The notes: generated from the sequence alone by a model not told the origin. A stretch of DNA of 64,000 nt from an uncultured Candidatus Saccharibacteria bacterium (GCA_964453405.1 CAYVOF010000003.1:4286-68285), one strand, 5' to 3'. Shown: positions 263 to 41,944, numbered from the stretch's first letter. Program-made: numbers and translations.

Positions 263-994
263 ATGAAAGACATTAGTCTATTAGACCTGCTTAAAAGCGG
301 GGCACATTTTGGGCATAAAACATCCCGTTGGAACCCAAAGATGAAGCCGTATATTTTTGCATCTCGCAATAACATTCACATCATTGATTTAGAAAAGACT
401 CGAGCGAGTCTTCAAAAGGCAACAACTTTCGTCGCTGAAATTGCTAAATCAGGTGGAACAGTTTTGTTTATCGGCACCAAGCGCCAATCTCGCGAAATTG
501 TTAAGCAACAAGCAGAAGCCTGTGGTATGCCTTACGTTAACTTACGCTGGTTGGGTGGAACATTCACTAACTTCCGCACAATTCAAAAAACTGTTCGTAA
601 GTTAGAAAAGTTACAGCAACGCAAAGATTCTCCTGACTTTGAACAAAAGTACACTAAAAAAGAACGTCTCTTAATCGAACGTGAAATCGAAAAGCTTACA
701 AAGTTGTTCGAAGGTATAAAGAACATGAAGCGAATTCCACAAGCTGTATTTATCACTGATATTCATCACGACAATATTGCTCTCACAGAAGCTCGCAAGA
801 TGAAGGTTCCAGTAATTGCTATTACTGATACCAACACTGATCCAAGCTTGGTAGATTATCCTATTCCAGCTAATGATGATGCTAGCAGTGCCGTATCATT
901 GATCACTGAATTTATTTCTACAGCTGTTAAAGTAAACAAGACTGTAGAAACTTCTGCACCAGCACCAGTCGTGGAAAAAACAGAAGTAGCTTAA
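263..994 (+). CDS. rpsB: 30S ribosomal protein S2
   Basis: N-terminal LLKSGAHFGHKTSRWNPKM and overall S2 architecture. An AAGGAAA RBS precedes the ATG. Confidence 0.95.
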   Translation: MKDISLLDLLKSGAHFGHKTSRWNPKMKPYIFASRNNIHIIDLEKTRASLQKATTFVAEIAKSGGTVLFIGTKRQSREIVKQQAEACGMPYVNLRWLGGTFTNFRTIQKTVRKLEKLQQRKDSPDFEQKYTKKERLLIEREIEKLTKLFEGIKNMKRIPQAVFITDIHHDNIALTEARKMKVPVIAITDTNTDPSLVDYPIPANDDASSAVSLITEFISTAVKVNKTVETSAPAPVVEKTEVA

Positions 995-36694: not shown

Positions 36695-36727
36695 AAAAAT
36701 CCCCTTATTTAAGGGGTTTTTTTTGCA
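36695..36727 (+). terminator. rho-independent terminator after secF
   Basis: AAAAAAATCCCCTTATTTAAGGGGTTTTTTTT. Confidence 0.6.
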
Positions 36728-36746: not shown

Positions 36747-36775
36747 TTGACCAACTCAAATATATATGTTATAAT
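36747..36775 (+). promoter_or_regulatory. near-consensus sigma70 promoter with extended -10
   Basis: TTGACC, 17 nt, TGtTATAAT, ending ~22 nt before the ATG at 36797. Confidence 0.5.
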
Positions 36776-36796: not shown

Positions 36797-37885
36797 ATGG
36801 GAATTTTAGATACAATCATCGACACACATCAGCGAGAATCTTTGCAAGAATTTGAGTTAAACTTGATCATTGCCAAGATCCTTGAACCACTAAAAGAGCG
36901 TGAAAAGCTCATTCTTTCAAAGCGCTATGGTTTAAACAATGAACCATTGCAAACGCTTAAGGTTGTAGGCGAAGAACAAGGTTTAACCCGTGAGCGTGTT
37001 CGTCAAATCGAAAAAGAATTACTCAAAAACCTCAAGCGTGGCGTAAACCAACTAGAAGACTTTATTTCTGCTCGTGATTTATTGTTAACTACAATTTCCG
37101 AACACGGTGGATTGATGTCCGAAGAGGCTCTGATTAATTACTTAGGCTATTCCGAAGAGTCTGATATTCAAGCTCTAAAGTTTTTATTGCGCTTAATTAC
37201 CGAAATCGAAGAACATAGCGAAGATGAGCATATCCGACAATCTTGGTCTAAGCTTGGCTTTGACAAAGACTTTTTGCATGACTTTGTTAAGACCACTAAG
37301 AAACTATTAGACAACCACGGACAACCCTTAGACTCAGATAAATTTATCGAAAAATTTGAACAATCAGAATTTTTTAAGAACAACCAAGATAAACTTAGTC
37401 CTAAAGTTGTACTTAACTACTTACAAGCATCTAGCGGCATCAAAAAGAATCCTTATGGTGAATTTGGGTTAGGCCACTGGAACGAAATTAAACCTAAAGA
37501 TGTTGGTGACAAAGCTTATTTAGTAATGAAGCACCACAAAAAACCAGAACATTATTCAGCTATTACTGATTTAATCAACGAACACAACATTGACGGCCGC
37601 AAAGCTTACAAAGAAACTGTTCATAATAAATTAATTAAAGATAAACGATTTGTATTAGTTGGCCGCGGTATCTACGCTCTTACTGAGTGGGGATACCAAC
37701 CAGGAGTTGTTTCGGACATTATCGCCGAAATCCTAAAAGACTCTGGTCAACCTATGACACGTGATCAAATTGTAGAAAAAGTTTTAGAACGCCGCATGGT
37801 TAAAAAGAACACTGTATTAGTAGGTCTTTCTAACAAGAAACTGTTCAAAAAGGTTGGTAAGAACCTTTACGCATTAGTGGCTTAA
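36797..37885 (+). CDS. sigma-70 region-4-like HTH fused to a C-terminal HARE-HTH domain
   Basis: N-terminus LSKRYGLNNEPLQTLKVVGEEQGLTRERVRQIEKELLKNL (region 4.2-like). C-terminus DKRFVLVGRGIYALTEWGY matches the HARE-HTH (RNAP delta-like) signature. Confidence 0.5.
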   Translation: MGILDTIIDTHQRESLQEFELNLIIAKILEPLKEREKLILSKRYGLNNEPLQTLKVVGEEQGLTRERVRQIEKELLKNLKRGVNQLEDFISARDLLLTTISEHGGLMSEEALINYLGYSEESDIQALKFLLRLITEIEEHSEDEHIRQSWSKLGFDKDFLHDFVKTTKKLLDNHGQPLDSDKFIEKFEQSEFFKNNQDKLSPKVVLNYLQASSGIKKNPYGEFGLGHWNEIKPKDVGDKAYLVMKHHKKPEHYSAITDLINEHNIDGRKAYKETVHNKLIKDKRFVLVGRGIYALTEWGYQPGVVSDIIAEILKDSGQPMTRDQIVEKVLERRMVKKNTVLVGLSNKKLFKKVGKNLYALVA

Positions 37886-37928: not shown

Positions 37929-39161
37929 ATGACAAACGGATCTACCTTCGACATAATCTATATATTAAATATTATATGGTTCCTATTCAGTCATGGAGGA
38001 TGGGTCCTTTTTGTTTTGTTGGCAATTTATCTTCTATATCAGATGTATATGGGAGAAATCCAAGGGCAGTATCTAAGTAGTATTGAATGGGTACTTTTAG
38101 AAATTAAGCCTCCTAAGGACAATCCTACCAGTTTTTATAATGCTGAACAGGTCTTTATTCAATTACATCAGTTATTTGATAACTGGACTTTTCAAGAAAA
38201 GTATTTAGAGGGGAAAATAGTATTTACTGTTTCATTTGAAATTGTTAGCTTGGGTGGAAAAATTTCTTATTTAATTCGCGCTCCAAAAAAGCAACAAGAT
38301 TTAATAGAAGCAGCTTTATATGCCAACTACCCAAGTATTGAAATTACCGAAGTTAAAGATTATTTAGAAAATTTTCACTATAGTCCTGATGATCCTCGCT
38401 ATGACCTGTTTGGCGCTGAATTTATACCAGTTAAAAGCCAAGCTTTTCCGATTCGAACTTATCGAGAATTTGAAAGTTTAAAAGGTCCCGAATTAAGCGA
38501 AATTGTGGTTGACCCACTTGCGCCATTGCTAGAAACCTATACCAAAATTGGTAGTCAGGAATTTTACGGTTTGCAAATTATTATTCAACCTGTAATGGAT
38601 AACTCCTGGAAAGAAGAAGTTGAAAATGAAGTTGAAAAAGTATTAGGCGAAAAAACTGTTGTTAGCGCTGACGGTAAAAAAACCAAGGTAAAGAATGATA
38701 TGATGGGTATAGACGAAATTGTTAAACAGCAAGTTACGGCTATGAAAAATAAGCTTAACCGTCCAGGTTTTAGTACCAAGATTCGTTTTTTGCATTTAGG
38801 AACAGCAGAGCAATTTAACAAGAACGCTAAAAAATTGGTGCTAAGTCCGTTCAGAATTTTTTCATCTGGAAACTTTAACAGTCTTAAACCTGCGTTTGGA
38901 CCAAAAAAAGATTACAGAATTTCCCCCAATTTAGAAGCAGCGTATATTAACTATTGGGTTAAAAATAGAAAGAAAGATATTTTTAATGGTTATAAAGGAC
39001 GTAGCACATGGGTAGGTGAAAAAACATTTATTCTTAATACGGAAGAGTTGGCTACTCTATATCACTTTCCGATCACAACACCTGGTTCTAATCAAACAGT
39101 GGAGTCATTGGACACAAAGAAAATCCAACCACCAGCCAACTTACCAATTGATGATTTATAA
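37929..39161 (+). CDS. hypothetical membrane protein (410 aa) upstream of the T4CP-like ATPase
   Basis: N-terminal TM helix pair, then a large soluble domain. No family recognised. Confidence 0.5.
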   Translation: MTNGSTFDIIYILNIIWFLFSHGGWVLFVLLAIYLLYQMYMGEIQGQYLSSIEWVLLEIKPPKDNPTSFYNAEQVFIQLHQLFDNWTFQEKYLEGKIVFTVSFEIVSLGGKISYLIRAPKKQQDLIEAALYANYPSIEITEVKDYLENFHYSPDDPRYDLFGAEFIPVKSQAFPIRTYREFESLKGPELSEIVVDPLAPLLETYTKIGSQEFYGLQIIIQPVMDNSWKEEVENEVEKVLGEKTVVSADGKKTKVKNDMMGIDEIVKQQVTAMKNKLNRPGFSTKIRFLHLGTAEQFNKNAKKLVLSPFRIFSSGNFNSLKPAFGPKKDYRISPNLEAAYINYWVKNRKKDIFNGYKGRSTWVGEKTFILNTEELATLYHFPITTPGSNQTVESLDTKKIQPPANLPIDDL

Positions 39162-39166
39162 ATTTT

Positions 39167-41029
39167 ATGGAAACAACCTCAGGACAACCTAAAGAACATA
39201 TTAATTTCTTCGCTAAGACCAACTTCCGCAACAAGCAGGTGCCTTTTGGTATTAAGCCAGATGACCGACGCCGTCACATGTACGTTATCGGTAAGACCGG
39301 TATGGGAAAAACTTCCATGATGGAAAACATGGTTGTTCAGGATATCCGCAATGGTAACGGAGTTTGTTTTATTGATCCTCATGGCGACTCGATTCAAAAA
39401 CTTCTAGATTATGTACCACCAAGCCGCATTAATGACGTGGTGTATTTTAACCCAGCCGATCAGGACTTTCCGATTGCTTTAAATATTTTAGAATCTGTTG
39501 ATCCTAAGTACCAGCATTTAGTGGCTTCGGGATTGATGGGTGTATTTACCAAAATTTGGGCAGGAGTTTGGTCGCCACGTATGGAATACATCTTAAACAA
39601 CACTATTTTGGCGTTGTTAGATAGCCCAGGCAATACAATGCTTGGGATTGTGCGCATGTACGTAGACAAAAAGTATCGCAAAAAAATAGTTGATGCTATT
39701 AAAGATCCGATGGTCCGAGCCTTTTGGGTAGAAGAATTTGCTAACTACGCCGAAAAGTATCGTACAGAAGCCGTAGCTCCGATTCAAAACAAAGTCGGAC
39801 AATTTTTATCGTCTTCAATTATTAGAAACATTATTGGGCAACCAAAGTCTACGATAGATTTGCGTGAGATTATGGACAACCAAAAAATTCTCTTAATGGA
39901 TTTGTCCAAAGGTAAAGTAGGTGAAGATAGCTCGGCTTTGCTTGGTGCTATGATTATCACCAAACTCCAGTTAGCTGCTTTATCTCGTGTGGATATTCCA
40001 GAACCTGACCGAAAAGATTTTTATTTATACGTAGATGAGTTCCAAAACTTTGTAACAGACAGTTTTGCTACTATTTTGTCCGAAGCGCGTAAATATCGCC
40101 TAAATTTAACCGTTGGCCATCAGTATATCGGACAGTTAACTCCGGACAATAACACTAAAGTGCGCGATGCTGTGTTTGGTAACGTTGGAAGTATGATTGT
40201 ATTTCGTGTTGGTGCTGCTGACGCCGAATATCTAGAAACAGAATTTGAACCAGCATTTACCCCGGTAGATATTGTAAACTTACCTAAGTGGCACATTGTG
40301 TTAAAACTGATGATCAATGGTATCGCTAGTGATCCGTTTACAGCCGTGACTGTTCCTATAAATGAAGAGTGGAAAATAGGGAATGGTGAGAAGATAATTA
40401 AAGTTTCTCGAGAACGATACGCCAATCCTCGCGCTGACGTAGAGGATAAGATCCAGCGTTGGATGGGTACAGAATTTCATGAAGCTTCTGCCGAATCTCA
40501 CAGCTCCGAAAACGGCGAGCAGTCTTTGCGTCGCCAAGAAGCCACCAAGCGTGAATTTAAGCCAAAGCCACCAACTGGTTTTACTAATGCAATGCGTGAT
40601 GCAGCGCAATCTCAAGCTCCAGCACCAAGATCAGAACCTAAAATTCAAGTAGCTGAAGACTTTTTAGAAAGGGTTAAGGCCGTACCTAAGCCTGTTGTTG
40701 AACCTATCGCACCAGCACCTAGACAACTACCAAAACAGCAAGCACCAAAATCTAATGACTCATGGCCCTCTCCAAAAAAGTTTAACACTTCTCCAAAGCC
40801 ATTTAAAAAAGATAATAAACCTGCGAAACCAAAAAAACCTATTAATGATGTATGGAAAACAGTACAAAATTTACAGGACGCCAAACAGGAAGATTTAGCA
40901 GATAATATTGCCAGCGCCATGGAGACAGTATTCTCTTCACCTAAACCTGCTCAAGCAGAACAACCAGTTCAACCAAAACCGCAAGAAAATAATTCTATAG
41001 TGGAAGAAGGTAAGACATACGATTTATAG
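39167..41029 (+). CDS. VirD4/TraD-like type IV coupling protein-family P-loop ATPase (cytoplasmic, no TM)
   Basis: Walker A YVIGKTGMGKTS...CFIDPHGD, Walker B FYLYVDEFQNF, and a T4CP-like RKYRLNLTVGHQYIGQL. C-terminal low-complexity tail rich in P/K/Q. Confidence 0.55.
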   Translation: METTSGQPKEHINFFAKTNFRNKQVPFGIKPDDRRRHMYVIGKTGMGKTSMMENMVVQDIRNGNGVCFIDPHGDSIQKLLDYVPPSRINDVVYFNPADQDFPIALNILESVDPKYQHLVASGLMGVFTKIWAGVWSPRMEYILNNTILALLDSPGNTMLGIVRMYVDKKYRKKIVDAIKDPMVRAFWVEEFANYAEKYRTEAVAPIQNKVGQFLSSSIIRNIIGQPKSTIDLREIMDNQKILLMDLSKGKVGEDSSALLGAMIITKLQLAALSRVDIPEPDRKDFYLYVDEFQNFVTDSFATILSEARKYRLNLTVGHQYIGQLTPDNNTKVRDAVFGNVGSMIVFRVGAADAEYLETEFEPAFTPVDIVNLPKWHIVLKLMINGIASDPFTAVTVPINEEWKIGNGEKIIKVSRERYANPRADVEDKIQRWMGTEFHEASAESHSSENGEQSLRRQEATKREFKPKPPTGFTNAMRDAAQSQAPAPRSEPKIQVAEDFLERVKAVPKPVVEPIAPAPRQLPKQQAPKSNDSWPSPKKFNTSPKPFKKDNKPAKPKKPINDVWKTVQNLQDAKQEDLADNIASAMETVFSSPKPAQAEQPVQPKPQENNSIVEEGKTYDL

Positions 41030-41521: not shown

Positions 41522-41944
41522 TTATGTTGTCAGGAACTCAAAAAACTCCTCTGAGATCCTTAACTCATTTGCAGGGAATAATTCCCATAATTCTATGGTT
41601 CTGTGGTGTACCATCGGAATAATCTTATGAGTTAAATCTGGGGCTTTTACCTTCATAAACACACTAGGAATATATAATATTGAACCCTTTTTGGAAGGAA
41701 AAGAAAATAATAATACTTTCCCTGGGATGTAAAAGCCATACCCAGTTTGAATTAGCATTTTCTCTTCTATATTGCGAATTAACTCTTCTCCGATGTTAAG
41801 ATCTGTAAATTTAAAAAACTCTTTCGACGTTGAGCAGTCAGGGACATTCTCCATTCCAAAAATCATTTCTGCAATATACTGAAAAGCTTTGGGAACTCTA
41901 TCATTTGCCGATGGACTAACATATCCAAAAACATCATCGGGCAT
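41522..41944 (-). CDS. hypothetical protein (140 aa)
   Basis: Intact ORF. The RBS is ~30 nt from the ATG, so the start is uncertain. Confidence 0.4.
   Translation of the reverse strand: MPDDVFGYVSPSANDRVPKAFQYIAEMIFGMENVPDCSTSKEFFKFTDLNIGEELIRNIEEKMLIQTGYGFYIPGKVLLFSFPSKKGSILYIPSVFMKVKAPDLTHKIIPMVHHRTIELWELFPANELRISEEFFEFLTT

Follow-up and report, generated by a model that had tools for sequence, protein, structure and literature searches.

Two adjacent genes for a membrane protein and a coupling-protein-like ATPase

We analyzed a 64,000-nucleotide stretch of DNA from an uncultured Candidatus Saccharibacteria bacterium (GCA_964453405.1, CAYVOF010000003.1:4286-68285; the whole stretch is referred to here as the window). 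Two plus-strand open reading frames (ORFs), lying in different frames with a stop codon and 5 nt between them, encode a 410-residue membrane protein with the Pfam domain DUF8128 and a 620-residue P-loop ATPase. A first-pass annotation, made from the sequence alone, had described them as a membrane protein and a VirD4/TraD-like coupling ATPase, and both ORFs and every motif that it quoted, namely Walker A, Walker B and RKYRLNLTVGHQYIGQL, were recovered in the translation (Table 1). The pair is a variant of the type IV coupling protein (T4CP) that is split, chromosomally fixed and not linked to a type IV secretion system (T4SS). For comparison we scanned one genome per species for DUF8128 and kept 80 loci from many lineages, titled as or resembling metagenome-assembled genomes (MAGs) of Patescibacteria.

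The ATPase core has the domain signature of a coupling protein. TrwB_AAD_bind (42.6 bits, cut-off 20.5, aligned over profile positions 10-314 of 387), DUF87 (30.1 bits) and TraG-D_C (23.4 bits, cut-off 22) all pass their Pfam thresholds, and a profile of diverse cores, run against all PDB sequences, retrieved TrwB (2e-7), DotL (2e-6) and HerA (8e-3) but no VirB4 or FtsK chain. Walker A, Walker B and RKYRLNLTVGHQYIGQL fall in invariant or near-invariant columns of the alignment of orthologues; sequence similarity to TrwB itself is limited (33 bits). A VirB4-type C-terminal signature is missing from the ATPase (P-loop_TraG 13 bits against a cut-off of 25.8, TIGR00929 at E 0.22, no AAA_10), Pfam searches found none of the FtsK/SpoIIIE domains PF01580, PF09397 and PF13491, and the CD1115-type VirD4 model scored 28.5 bits, below its cut-off of 250. 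As the first-pass annotation had stated, the protein has no N-terminal transmembrane (TM) anchor: no TM segment was found, the best 19-residue Kyte-Doolittle hydropathy being 1.45. An AF2 model built on a 26-sequence alignment (≥63% identity) was too poor for use (pLDDT 44.5, pTM 0.22).

The core is followed by a disordered tail of the low-complexity character and approximate length (180 residues) originally described, rich in proline (13.9%), lysine (12.2%) and alanine (10.6%), with a pI of 9.3 and no cysteine. Among 62 orthologues the tail varies from about 70 to 360 residues and is basic in 47. A CxxC-x17-CxxC zinc ribbon (PF23477 zf_Tbcl_2 / TIGR04272) is present in the tails of 39, for example at residues ~470-494 and ~459-483 in loci L007 and L010, and has been lost in the lineage of the window, whose ATPase tail has none. 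A terminal motif, PG[QEDKR]x[IVTAS]x[FLIM], occurs within the last 20 residues of 23 of the 62, compared with an expectation of 0.07 when the tails are shuffled. One helix in the tail is the sole part of the ATPase model to reach a pLDDT of 62-74 (Table 1). The C-terminal extensions of TraD and DotL bind adaptors, and by analogy the tail may tether a substrate or an adaptor.

The 410-residue protein had no match in the NCBIfam and PADLOC sets searched, or in a copy of Pfam without the PF26449 model; its assignment to DUF8128 (PF26449) comes from the precomputed Pfam annotation of a database protein, P0121, that is 100% identical to it. The N-terminal hydrophobic stretch was modeled by AF2 as one long helix (residues 9-51), and lysine-plus-arginine counts rise from 0.57 ahead of the hydrophobic span to 2.79 behind it. 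Given the positive-inside rule and the natural fusions to an ATPase described below, we infer that the C-terminal domain is cytoplasmic. The motifs EELATLYHFP and PPANLPI lie in the region that forms the junction with the ATPase in single-chain homologues.

The AF2 model of the DUF8128 protein (pLDDT 76.9, pTM 0.74) comprises the long N-terminal helix, alpha/beta domains and a disordered C-terminus. In a Foldseek search of the PDB, its top 12 matches were all TrwK/VirB4 of the R388 T4SS (probability 0.99-1.0, E 6e-5 to 1e-3), with modest TM-scores of 0.31-0.40 and an output that omits the aligned region. No other P-loop ATPase appeared among the top 50, and the match was therefore taken to concern the N-terminal domain (NTD) specific to VirB4. 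In BFVD the best match was phage G gp156 (1.6e-15), followed by its relatives, and the sixth was the VirB4-like gp155 (1.3e-6), whose P-loop begins only at about residue 330. Sequence comparisons of DUF8128 with VirB4, by profile against PDB sequences and by hhalign against gp155, gave no match. A VirB4-NTD-like fold for the cytoplasmic module of DUF8128, independently supported by the BFVD matches, is a fold-level lead from a predicted model rather than proof.

Table 1. Features of the DUF8128/ATPase locus; coordinates are counted from the first nucleotide of the window
Feature	Residues	Coordinates	Strand	Basis or remark
DUF8128 (PF26449) protein; candidate N-terminal half (anchor and VirB4-NTD-like module) of a split T4CP	410 in total	37929..39161	+
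N-terminal hydrophobic TM helix; invariant GG at residues 23-24	~9-38	37953..38042	+	Kyte-Doolittle 2.14
Conserved C-terminal motifs EELATLYHFP and PPANLPI	372-381 and 401-407	39042..39149	+	Invariant columns
ATPase ORF	620 in total	39167..41029	+
T4CP-type P-loop ATPase core	1-440	39167..40486	+	Pfam and PDB matches; 57-87% identity across 80 loci
Walker A, GKTGMGKT	42-49	39290..39313	+
Walker B, FYLYVDEF	285-292	40022..40039 (residues 286-291)	+
RKYRLNLTVGHQYIGQL block	308-324		+	Translation
Basic low-complexity tail, rich in P/K/A/Q/E/S	441-620	40487..41026	+
Conserved tail helix; W563 invariant among close relatives	~562-588	40850..40930	+
C-terminal motif EEGKTYDL, a degenerate form of the family terminal motif L[KQ]PG[QED]x[IV]x[FL]		41003..41026	+
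Terminator-like hairpin and T-run, 3' of secF		36701..36716	+
Near-consensus sigma-70-type promoter, TTGACC-17-TATAAT, extended -10 TG, 11/12 matches		36747..36775	+	Consensus match only
Protein with sigma-70 region 4 (residues 29-80) and HARE-HTH (residues 239-298)	362 in total	36797..37885	+	Pfam

The two modules form a single chain in other lineages

The relationship between the two proteins became apparent from homologues in which both are carried on one polypeptide. In PHROG 5156, positions 29-254 of 824 match the DUF8128 protein and positions 396-815 match the ATPase (E 2e-60). In phage G gp156 (825 residues), residues 31-169 align with the DUF8128 profile (hhalign 94.7%, E 6e-8) and a later part aligns with the ATPase; for gp27.4 of phage SPO1 the hhalign match to DUF8128 is weak (22%).

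The same arrangement characterizes a class of actinobacterial coupling proteins. WP_331738717.1, from a plasmid of Embleya sp. NBC_00896, is an 812-residue T4CP whose ATPase-like part begins at about residue 413 and shares ~34% identity over ~400 residues with Patescibacteria ATPases (tblastn, E ~1e-70, 66 sources). When it was used as a query, approximately 117 of the 120 best matches were Streptomycetaceae proteins of about 800 residues with precomputed annotations of PF26449 and PF10412 (plus PF01935/PF12696). The N-terminal part of the Embleya protein is collinear with the DUF8128 motifs DPL, QIxxxP, ELAxxxHxP and PPxxxP; against this single sequence hhalign reached only 7%, and the link to DUF8128 therefore rests on the PF26449 annotations. 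The surroundings are those of a textbook conjugation cluster of monoderms: TrbL_4-like, PrgI (VirB3) and VirB4-like (P-loop_TraG, AAA_10, TraC_F_IV) genes lie upstream of the Embleya gene, and genes for a Replic_Relax relaxase and an NlpC/P60+SLT hydrolase follow it.

A single chain is probably also present in Saccharimonadia. Southlakia epibionticum SEML1_0293 has 921 residues, the same three Pfam domains and ATPase domains at residues 402-719; it lies immediately 3' of an essential 349-residue gene annotated 'RpoS' (SEML1_0294), which corresponds in synteny to the sigma-70 region 4/HARE-HTH gene next to our pair, and among its neighbors are cas9 and GNAT genes and a CRISPR-Cas locus of type II (Wang et al. 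2023, PMC10633639).

A chain of ~800-900 residues that joins a DUF8128 module to a TrwB/VirD4-like ATPase is therefore found in Actinobacteria and some Bacillus phages, and in most Patescibacteria, the window included, it is divided into two adjacent genes. Because both modules form one chain in Streptomycetaceae, phage G and PHROG 5156, we are highly confident that the window pair is a split T4CP of the DUF8128 type. That the DUF8128 protein supplies the membrane anchor in trans is probable. The first-pass annotation had raised this as a possibility, and it is now strongly supported by fusion of DUF8128 to the ATPase in ~117 of the top 120 Streptomycetaceae T4CP matches, in gp156 and, apparently, in SEML1_0293. 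The VirD4/TraD-like designation of the ATPase gains likewise from the ~34% identity to the Embleya T4CP, alongside the Pfam and PDB matches.

Several related arrangements were noted in the course of this survey. Bacillus phage G carries a mini T4SS-like set (L081, 798-6362) consisting of a TrbL_4/VirB6-like gp153, the VirB4-like gp155 and the fused T4CP-like gp156. In Bacillus phage SPO1 (L082, 1774-7284), an actin-like partition protein (gp27.9; ALP_N, Alp7A-like), the fused gp27.4 (906 residues) and a Replic_Relax protein (gp27.3) form a compact plasmid- or conjugation-like DNA-handling set in a lytic phage. The closest relative outside Patescibacteria in the plasmid collection is a solo 395-residue ATPase on a Sulfitobacter mediterraneus plasmid (L083, 7010-8197; 37% identity to the window ATPase, E 1e-92), which has transposases and a recombinase around it but no DUF8128 gene and may indicate horizontal transfer. 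IMG/VR viral contigs, scanned with the DUF8128 alignment, yielded no relatives. A 1016-residue 'natural fusion' in locus L026 was discarded, the ORF reading through a run of Ns.

Conservation and linkage across Patescibacteria

DUF8128 was found in at least 584 species genomes, and an exhaustive search of representatives returned 2,737 clusters at 50% identity. The two genes co-occur as a unit: the ATPase gene lies immediately 3' of DUF8128 in 63 of the 80 loci and within ~650 bp in two more, and a further two end at a contig edge. SecD, SecF and the sigma-70 region 4/HARE-HTH gene lie upstream in 51, 52 and 54 loci, respectively, the last of these immediately 5' of DUF8128. The dcw neighbors seen in the window are conserved among close relatives only (MraY in 6 of 80).

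Measured against the window, the ATPase core has a median identity of 62% over 74 distant loci; the corresponding values are 49% for SecD, 44% for SecF, 36% for the sigma-70 region 4/HARE-HTH protein and 31% for DUF8128, and no two ATPase cores fall below 53%. To judge from these comparisons, the pair is vertically inherited under strong constraint and is not a mobile island. A decaying remnant of a mobile element was rejected on the conserved synteny across many lineages, the 62% median identity and the intact catalytic motifs.

The remaining 13 loci encode longer DUF8128 paralogues of 474-504 residues with an extended C-terminus (for example L029, 7935-9449, and L068, 7929-9353); in L029 the PPxNLP motif is duplicated. 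For these paralogues the ATPase is either encoded elsewhere or replaced by another partner. As a separate observation, many 'binchicken' MAG records titled 'uncultured Gammaproteobacteria' or 'Candidatus Saccharibacteria' (L001, L002 and others) carry the Patescibacteria-type secDF/DUF8128/ATPase synteny, with ATPases 57-87% identical, and their titles look like placeholder or wrong taxonomy.

Genomic neighborhood

The window is occupied by housekeeping genes: glycosyltransferases, MurG/C/B, SecA, an M1 peptidase, SecDF, the three-gene unit described next and a thioredoxin, together with an S11 peptidase, MraY, MurD, FtsW, MurJ, LepA and ATP synthase. Base composition is uniform over the 64 kb, and GC content and skew are unremarkable. 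A 140-residue ORF on the minus strand (41522-41944), between the thioredoxin and S11 peptidase genes, had no Pfam match and no tblastn counterpart among the 80 loci, and may be lineage-specific or not a gene.

Upstream of the pair, a hairpin 3' of secF probably divides secDF from what follows, and a near-consensus promoter precedes the sigma-70 region 4/HARE-HTH gene (Table 1). The combination of this hairpin with an 11/12 promoter match suggests a transcription unit of three genes (sigma-70 region 4/HARE-HTH, DUF8128 and ATPase), of which the promoter is the probable driver on consensus grounds; the first gene is probably co-transcribed with the pair. The first-pass annotation had placed the pair under a strong promoter region. 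One good site is indeed present, but it sits 5' of the HARE-HTH gene and not immediately 5' of the pair, and promoter-like sites in the region are no more numerous in total than in shuffled sequence.

The HARE-HTH domain has the fold of the RNA polymerase delta subunit. The gene does adjoin the pair, as had been noted, but with a sigma-70 region 4 in the protein, and with its syntenic counterpart SEML1_0294 essential in Southlakia (PMC10633639), it resembles a core transcription factor more than one dedicated to regulating these two genes. With sigma-70 region 4 joined to HARE-HTH, it would be an unusual core transcription factor of Patescibacteria.

The neighborhood raises three alternative readings. 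A membrane-tethered unfoldase or translocation ATPase tied to SecDF might be expected where SecD and SecF are found upstream in 51-52 of 80 loci, in distant lineages too, and SecA lies 7 kb upstream in the window. The hairpin and new promoter nevertheless split secF from the unit, we know of no homologue with the DUF8128-ATPase architecture that acts on Sec substrates, homologues outside Patescibacteria adjoin T4SS or relaxase genes and not sec genes, and in Southlakia SEML1_0293 lies next to cas9 and GNAT genes. We regard a Sec accessory as very unlikely.

The position near MraY, MurD, FtsW and MurJ, and membership of the FtsK-HerA superfamily, could alternatively point to an FtsK-like pump for cell division or chromosome segregation. 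The mur/fts/sec surroundings, the high conservation and the P/Q/K-rich tail, which recalls the FtsK linker, are in keeping with this; the ATPase, however, matches neither FtsK_SpoIIIE nor the gamma domain, and the dcw neighbors are kept in close relatives only. Such a pump is hardly to be expected. A substitute for FtsK was rejected: Southlakia possesses a canonical FtsK with four TM segments (4TM) and alpha, motor and gamma domains (SEML1_0096), which is essential, and the orthologue of our pair is non-essential (PMC10633639).

An anti-phage defense ATPase of the HerA or MADS mad8 type, or a decaying conjugative-element remnant, was suggested by a PADLOC match to mad8 (1.7e-14), weak HerA matches, the solo Sulfitobacter ATPase amid transposases and the CRISPR-Cas locus beside SEML1_0293. 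A PADLOC scan and the scanned window ORFs revealed no other MADS, Dnd or NurA components near the pair, and the unremarkable GC content and skew also speak against this reading, which we consider improbable. Its occurrence at one fixed locus in essentially every genome tells further against a remnant.

Finally, the claim that no other type IV secretion genes lie nearby was borne out: Pfam scans of 20 larger ORFs elsewhere in the window found no VirB4, VirB6, PrgI or relaxase, and tblastn probes, of low sensitivity, agreed. The step from there to a 'stand-alone' module does not follow. A window of 64 kb is too little for that conclusion when a T4SS is encoded elsewhere on the chromosome in about 80% of Patescibacteria and the T4CP usually lies far from virB4 (PMC12102498).

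Relation to the type IV secretion systems of Patescibacteria

The distribution of T4CPs in this phylum has been surveyed. Quinonero-Coronel et al. (2025, PMC12102498) surveyed 3,035 Patescibacteria genomes and counted 5,713 VirD4-type T4CP homologues in 2,918 of them, or approximately two per genome; only 148 of the homologues lie near virB4. VirB4 was detected in 2,417 genomes (~80%). The T4SS is chromosomal and derived from the monoderm class MPF-FATA (mating pair formation, FATA type), a relaxase is almost always absent, and those authors raised a possible exaptation of the T4CP. Their orphan homologues are almost certainly of the same gene family as the window ATPase. In the available text of that survey and of the Southlakia study, we found no mention of the DUF8128 partner, the split and fused architectures, the secDF and sigma-70 region 4/HARE-HTH synteny, the extreme conservation or the tail motifs, and no paper naming DUF8128 was found in the searchable full-text literature. 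The presence of T4CPs in Patescibacteria is thus already known, and the partner protein, origin, anatomy and conservation appear to be undescribed.

As the best explanation of these results, to which we give a slight preference overall, the two genes are halves of one DUF8128-type T4CP, anchored in trans, that works as the in-trans coupling ATPase of a chromosomal T4SS. In such a system, the DUF8128 protein would enter the cytoplasmic membrane via its N-terminal helix and its cytoplasmic domain would dock the soluble ATPase. The ATPase would then form a TrwB-like, membrane-proximal hexameric ring and use ATP to feed a polymer (DNA or unfolded protein) to a membrane channel, with the long basic tail serving as a flexible tether to recruit substrate or adaptor. 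The specific role, that of a coupling or receptor ATPase for the MPF-FATA-derived T4SS with a substrate that is not relaxase-piloted, is an even call. It is favored because all examined contexts of this architecture outside Patescibacteria are T4SS or relaxase contexts, and because the Patescibacteria T4SS shares monoderm ancestry and has no T4CP of its own.

Several observations weigh against this explanation. T4CP homologues are more widespread than VirB4 (96% versus 80% of genomes), leaving at least 501 genomes with no detected VirB4 (PMC12102498). In Southlakia, SEML1_0293 is non-essential, with 82-120 insertion sites, while the T4SS genes are essential (PMC10633639); its orthology to the pair is apparent from synteny and domain coordinates, not from sequence. 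T4SS and relaxase probes were negative by tblastn, at low sensitivity, in the 1.23 Mb that the window makes up together with the 80 loci, and in 13 of these loci no ATPase lies within 4-8 kb of the DUF8128 paralogue. The ATPase falls short of the NCBIfam TraD/VirD4 cut-offs (TIGR03743, 55.7 versus 366 bits), and its all-alpha domain, hexameric state and DUF8128 interface are putative, the ATPase model being poor (pLDDT 44.5). Conservation of the ATPase core, moreover, greatly exceeds what T4CPs of mobile elements usually show, a hint of a housekeeping role. The Southlakia result could be accommodated: in well-studied systems pilus biogenesis does not require the T4CP, which would reconcile an essential T4SS with a dispensable coupling protein.

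Southlakia also has a second T4CP-like paralogue. SEML1_0142, a 'TraM recognition domain-containing protein' of 1019 residues with a P-loop region at 381-800 and FtsK (2iut) as its closest ECOD domain, is essential, as is the small upstream gene SEML1_0141, unlike SEML1_0293. The existence of this paralogue fits the figure of about two T4CP homologues per Patescibacteria genome.

The strongest competitor is a nucleic-acid translocase independent of any T4SS, an exapted membrane-anchored motor for uptake or export of DNA or RNA that would work without VirB4 or VirB6, for example by drawing in DNA behind ComEC or by transporting nucleic acid that comes from the host. The spread beyond VirB4 and the exaptation raised in PMC12102498 are compatible with such a motor, as are the lack of T4SS neighbors, an extreme degree of conservation typical of core machinery, and the basic tail with its zinc ribbon in 39 of 62 orthologues. 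Southlakia ComEC is non-essential, like SEML1_0293 (PMC10633639), which is compatible with this alternative but not informative. On the other side, comEC, comF, dprA and pilus genes show no linkage to the pair in the window or the loci, incompleteness of MAGs could account for part of the gap between 96% and 80%, and the architecture keeps T4SS or relaxase company in every context examined outside Patescibacteria. No T4CP has, to our knowledge, been shown to power transformation. We think a translocase of this kind unlikely, and for the competence or DNA-uptake function proposed by the first-pass annotation we found no evidence beyond a general DNA-translocase ancestry.

Discussion

A large part of bacterial diversity belongs to Patescibacteria, which rely on hosts for building blocks. 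In the one species that is genetically tractable the T4SS is essential, and its gene cluster contains no recognizable coupling protein or relaxase. Our analysis shows that the near-universal 'orphan' T4CP homologue belongs to a unit of two genes, has DUF8128 as its defined membrane partner and is under unusually strong constraint, and traces the unit to a specific single-chain class of T4CPs from monoderm conjugative elements. The pair is a vertically inherited core gene pair that, judging from its Southlakia orthologue, is dispensable for epibiotic growth in the laboratory. As a concrete and testable candidate, it could fill the missing coupling step or carry out translocation independently.

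The second of these would be the more far-reaching. It is an outside chance that the pair is a Patescibacteria-wide core machine that operates apart from any secretion system, a membrane-anchored motor that moves nucleic acid, either DNA or RNA from the host or that of the cell itself, across the membrane or along it. If so, the zinc-ribbon or basic tail would bind the substrate and the terminal motif would dock a channel or adaptor, and conservation above that of SecD and a spread above that of VirB4 would be accounted for.

For DUF8128, until now a domain of unknown function, the results offer a likely role and a candidate VirB4-NTD-like fold. VirB4 and T4CPs are recognized paralogues; if the fold match holds, it would provide a structural link between these two families of T4SS ATPases, and a VirB4-like N-terminal module would mark the pair as a surviving intermediate between VirB4 and classical T4CPs.

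Comparison with known systems

The closest counterparts are the Streptomycetaceae T4CPs represented by the Embleya protein. These share PF26449 followed by PF10412/PF01935/PF12696 in the same order, a TM helix at the N-terminus with basic residues after it, collinear DUF8128 motifs and an ATPase of ~34% identity. They differ in being a single polypeptide encoded inside a T4SS cluster, whereas the window contains two genes in a housekeeping neighborhood in which no T4SS or relaxase gene was found; in Patescibacteria, the protein also has a long, basic tail with a terminal motif and, in most lineages, a zinc ribbon. Southlakia SEML1_0293 agrees with the window pair in its three Pfam domains and in the 'RpoS-like' gene upstream but is one chain of 921 residues. 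The phage proteins of phrog_5156, phage G gp156 and SPO1 gp27.4, also join a DUF8128-like module to a T4CP-like ATPase (825-906 residues) but are phage-encoded and only 23-27% identical; gp156 adjoins VirB4-like and TrbL-like genes, and gp27.4 adjoins Replic_Relax and actin-like partition genes.

With the classical coupling proteins TrwB (R388), VirD4, TraD and DotL, the window ATPase shares a P-loop nucleotide-binding domain with a TraG-D_C region, TrwB and DotL being its best PDB matches, and in TraD and DotL also a C-terminal extension that acts as an adaptor or substrate tether. Classical T4CPs differ in carrying a short anchor of two TM segments (2-TM) at the N-terminus of the same chain, with no VirB4-NTD-like module of ~350 residues. 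From VirB4 (TrwK, gp155), which has the same two-module organization of N- and C-terminal domains and provides the best structural matches of the predicted DUF8128 model, the pair is set apart by an ATPase half that fits T4CP and not VirB4 profiles, and by the lack of sequence similarity of DUF8128 to TrwK or gp155. As for HerA, DUF87 scores above its cut-off on the window ATPase, HerA chains in the PDB reach only E 8e-3, and no NurA-like neighbor of the ATPase was seen among the window ORFs scanned. FtsK/SpoIIIE differ in that the window ATPase lacks matches to the FtsK_SpoIIIE motor, the gamma domain, which binds FtsK-orienting polar sequences (KOPS), and the 4TM N-terminus.

Anchoring in trans has a precedent in plasmid pIP501, where TraI, a membrane protein encoded separately, is the proposed anchor of TraJ, a T4CP that lacks TM segments (PMC12857230). 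The likeness to our pair, a coupling ATPase without TM segments together with a separately encoded membrane protein, is one of arrangement: TraI is a small 2-TM protein, in contrast to the 410-residue DUF8128 protein, and TraI and TraJ are encoded within a conjugation operon.

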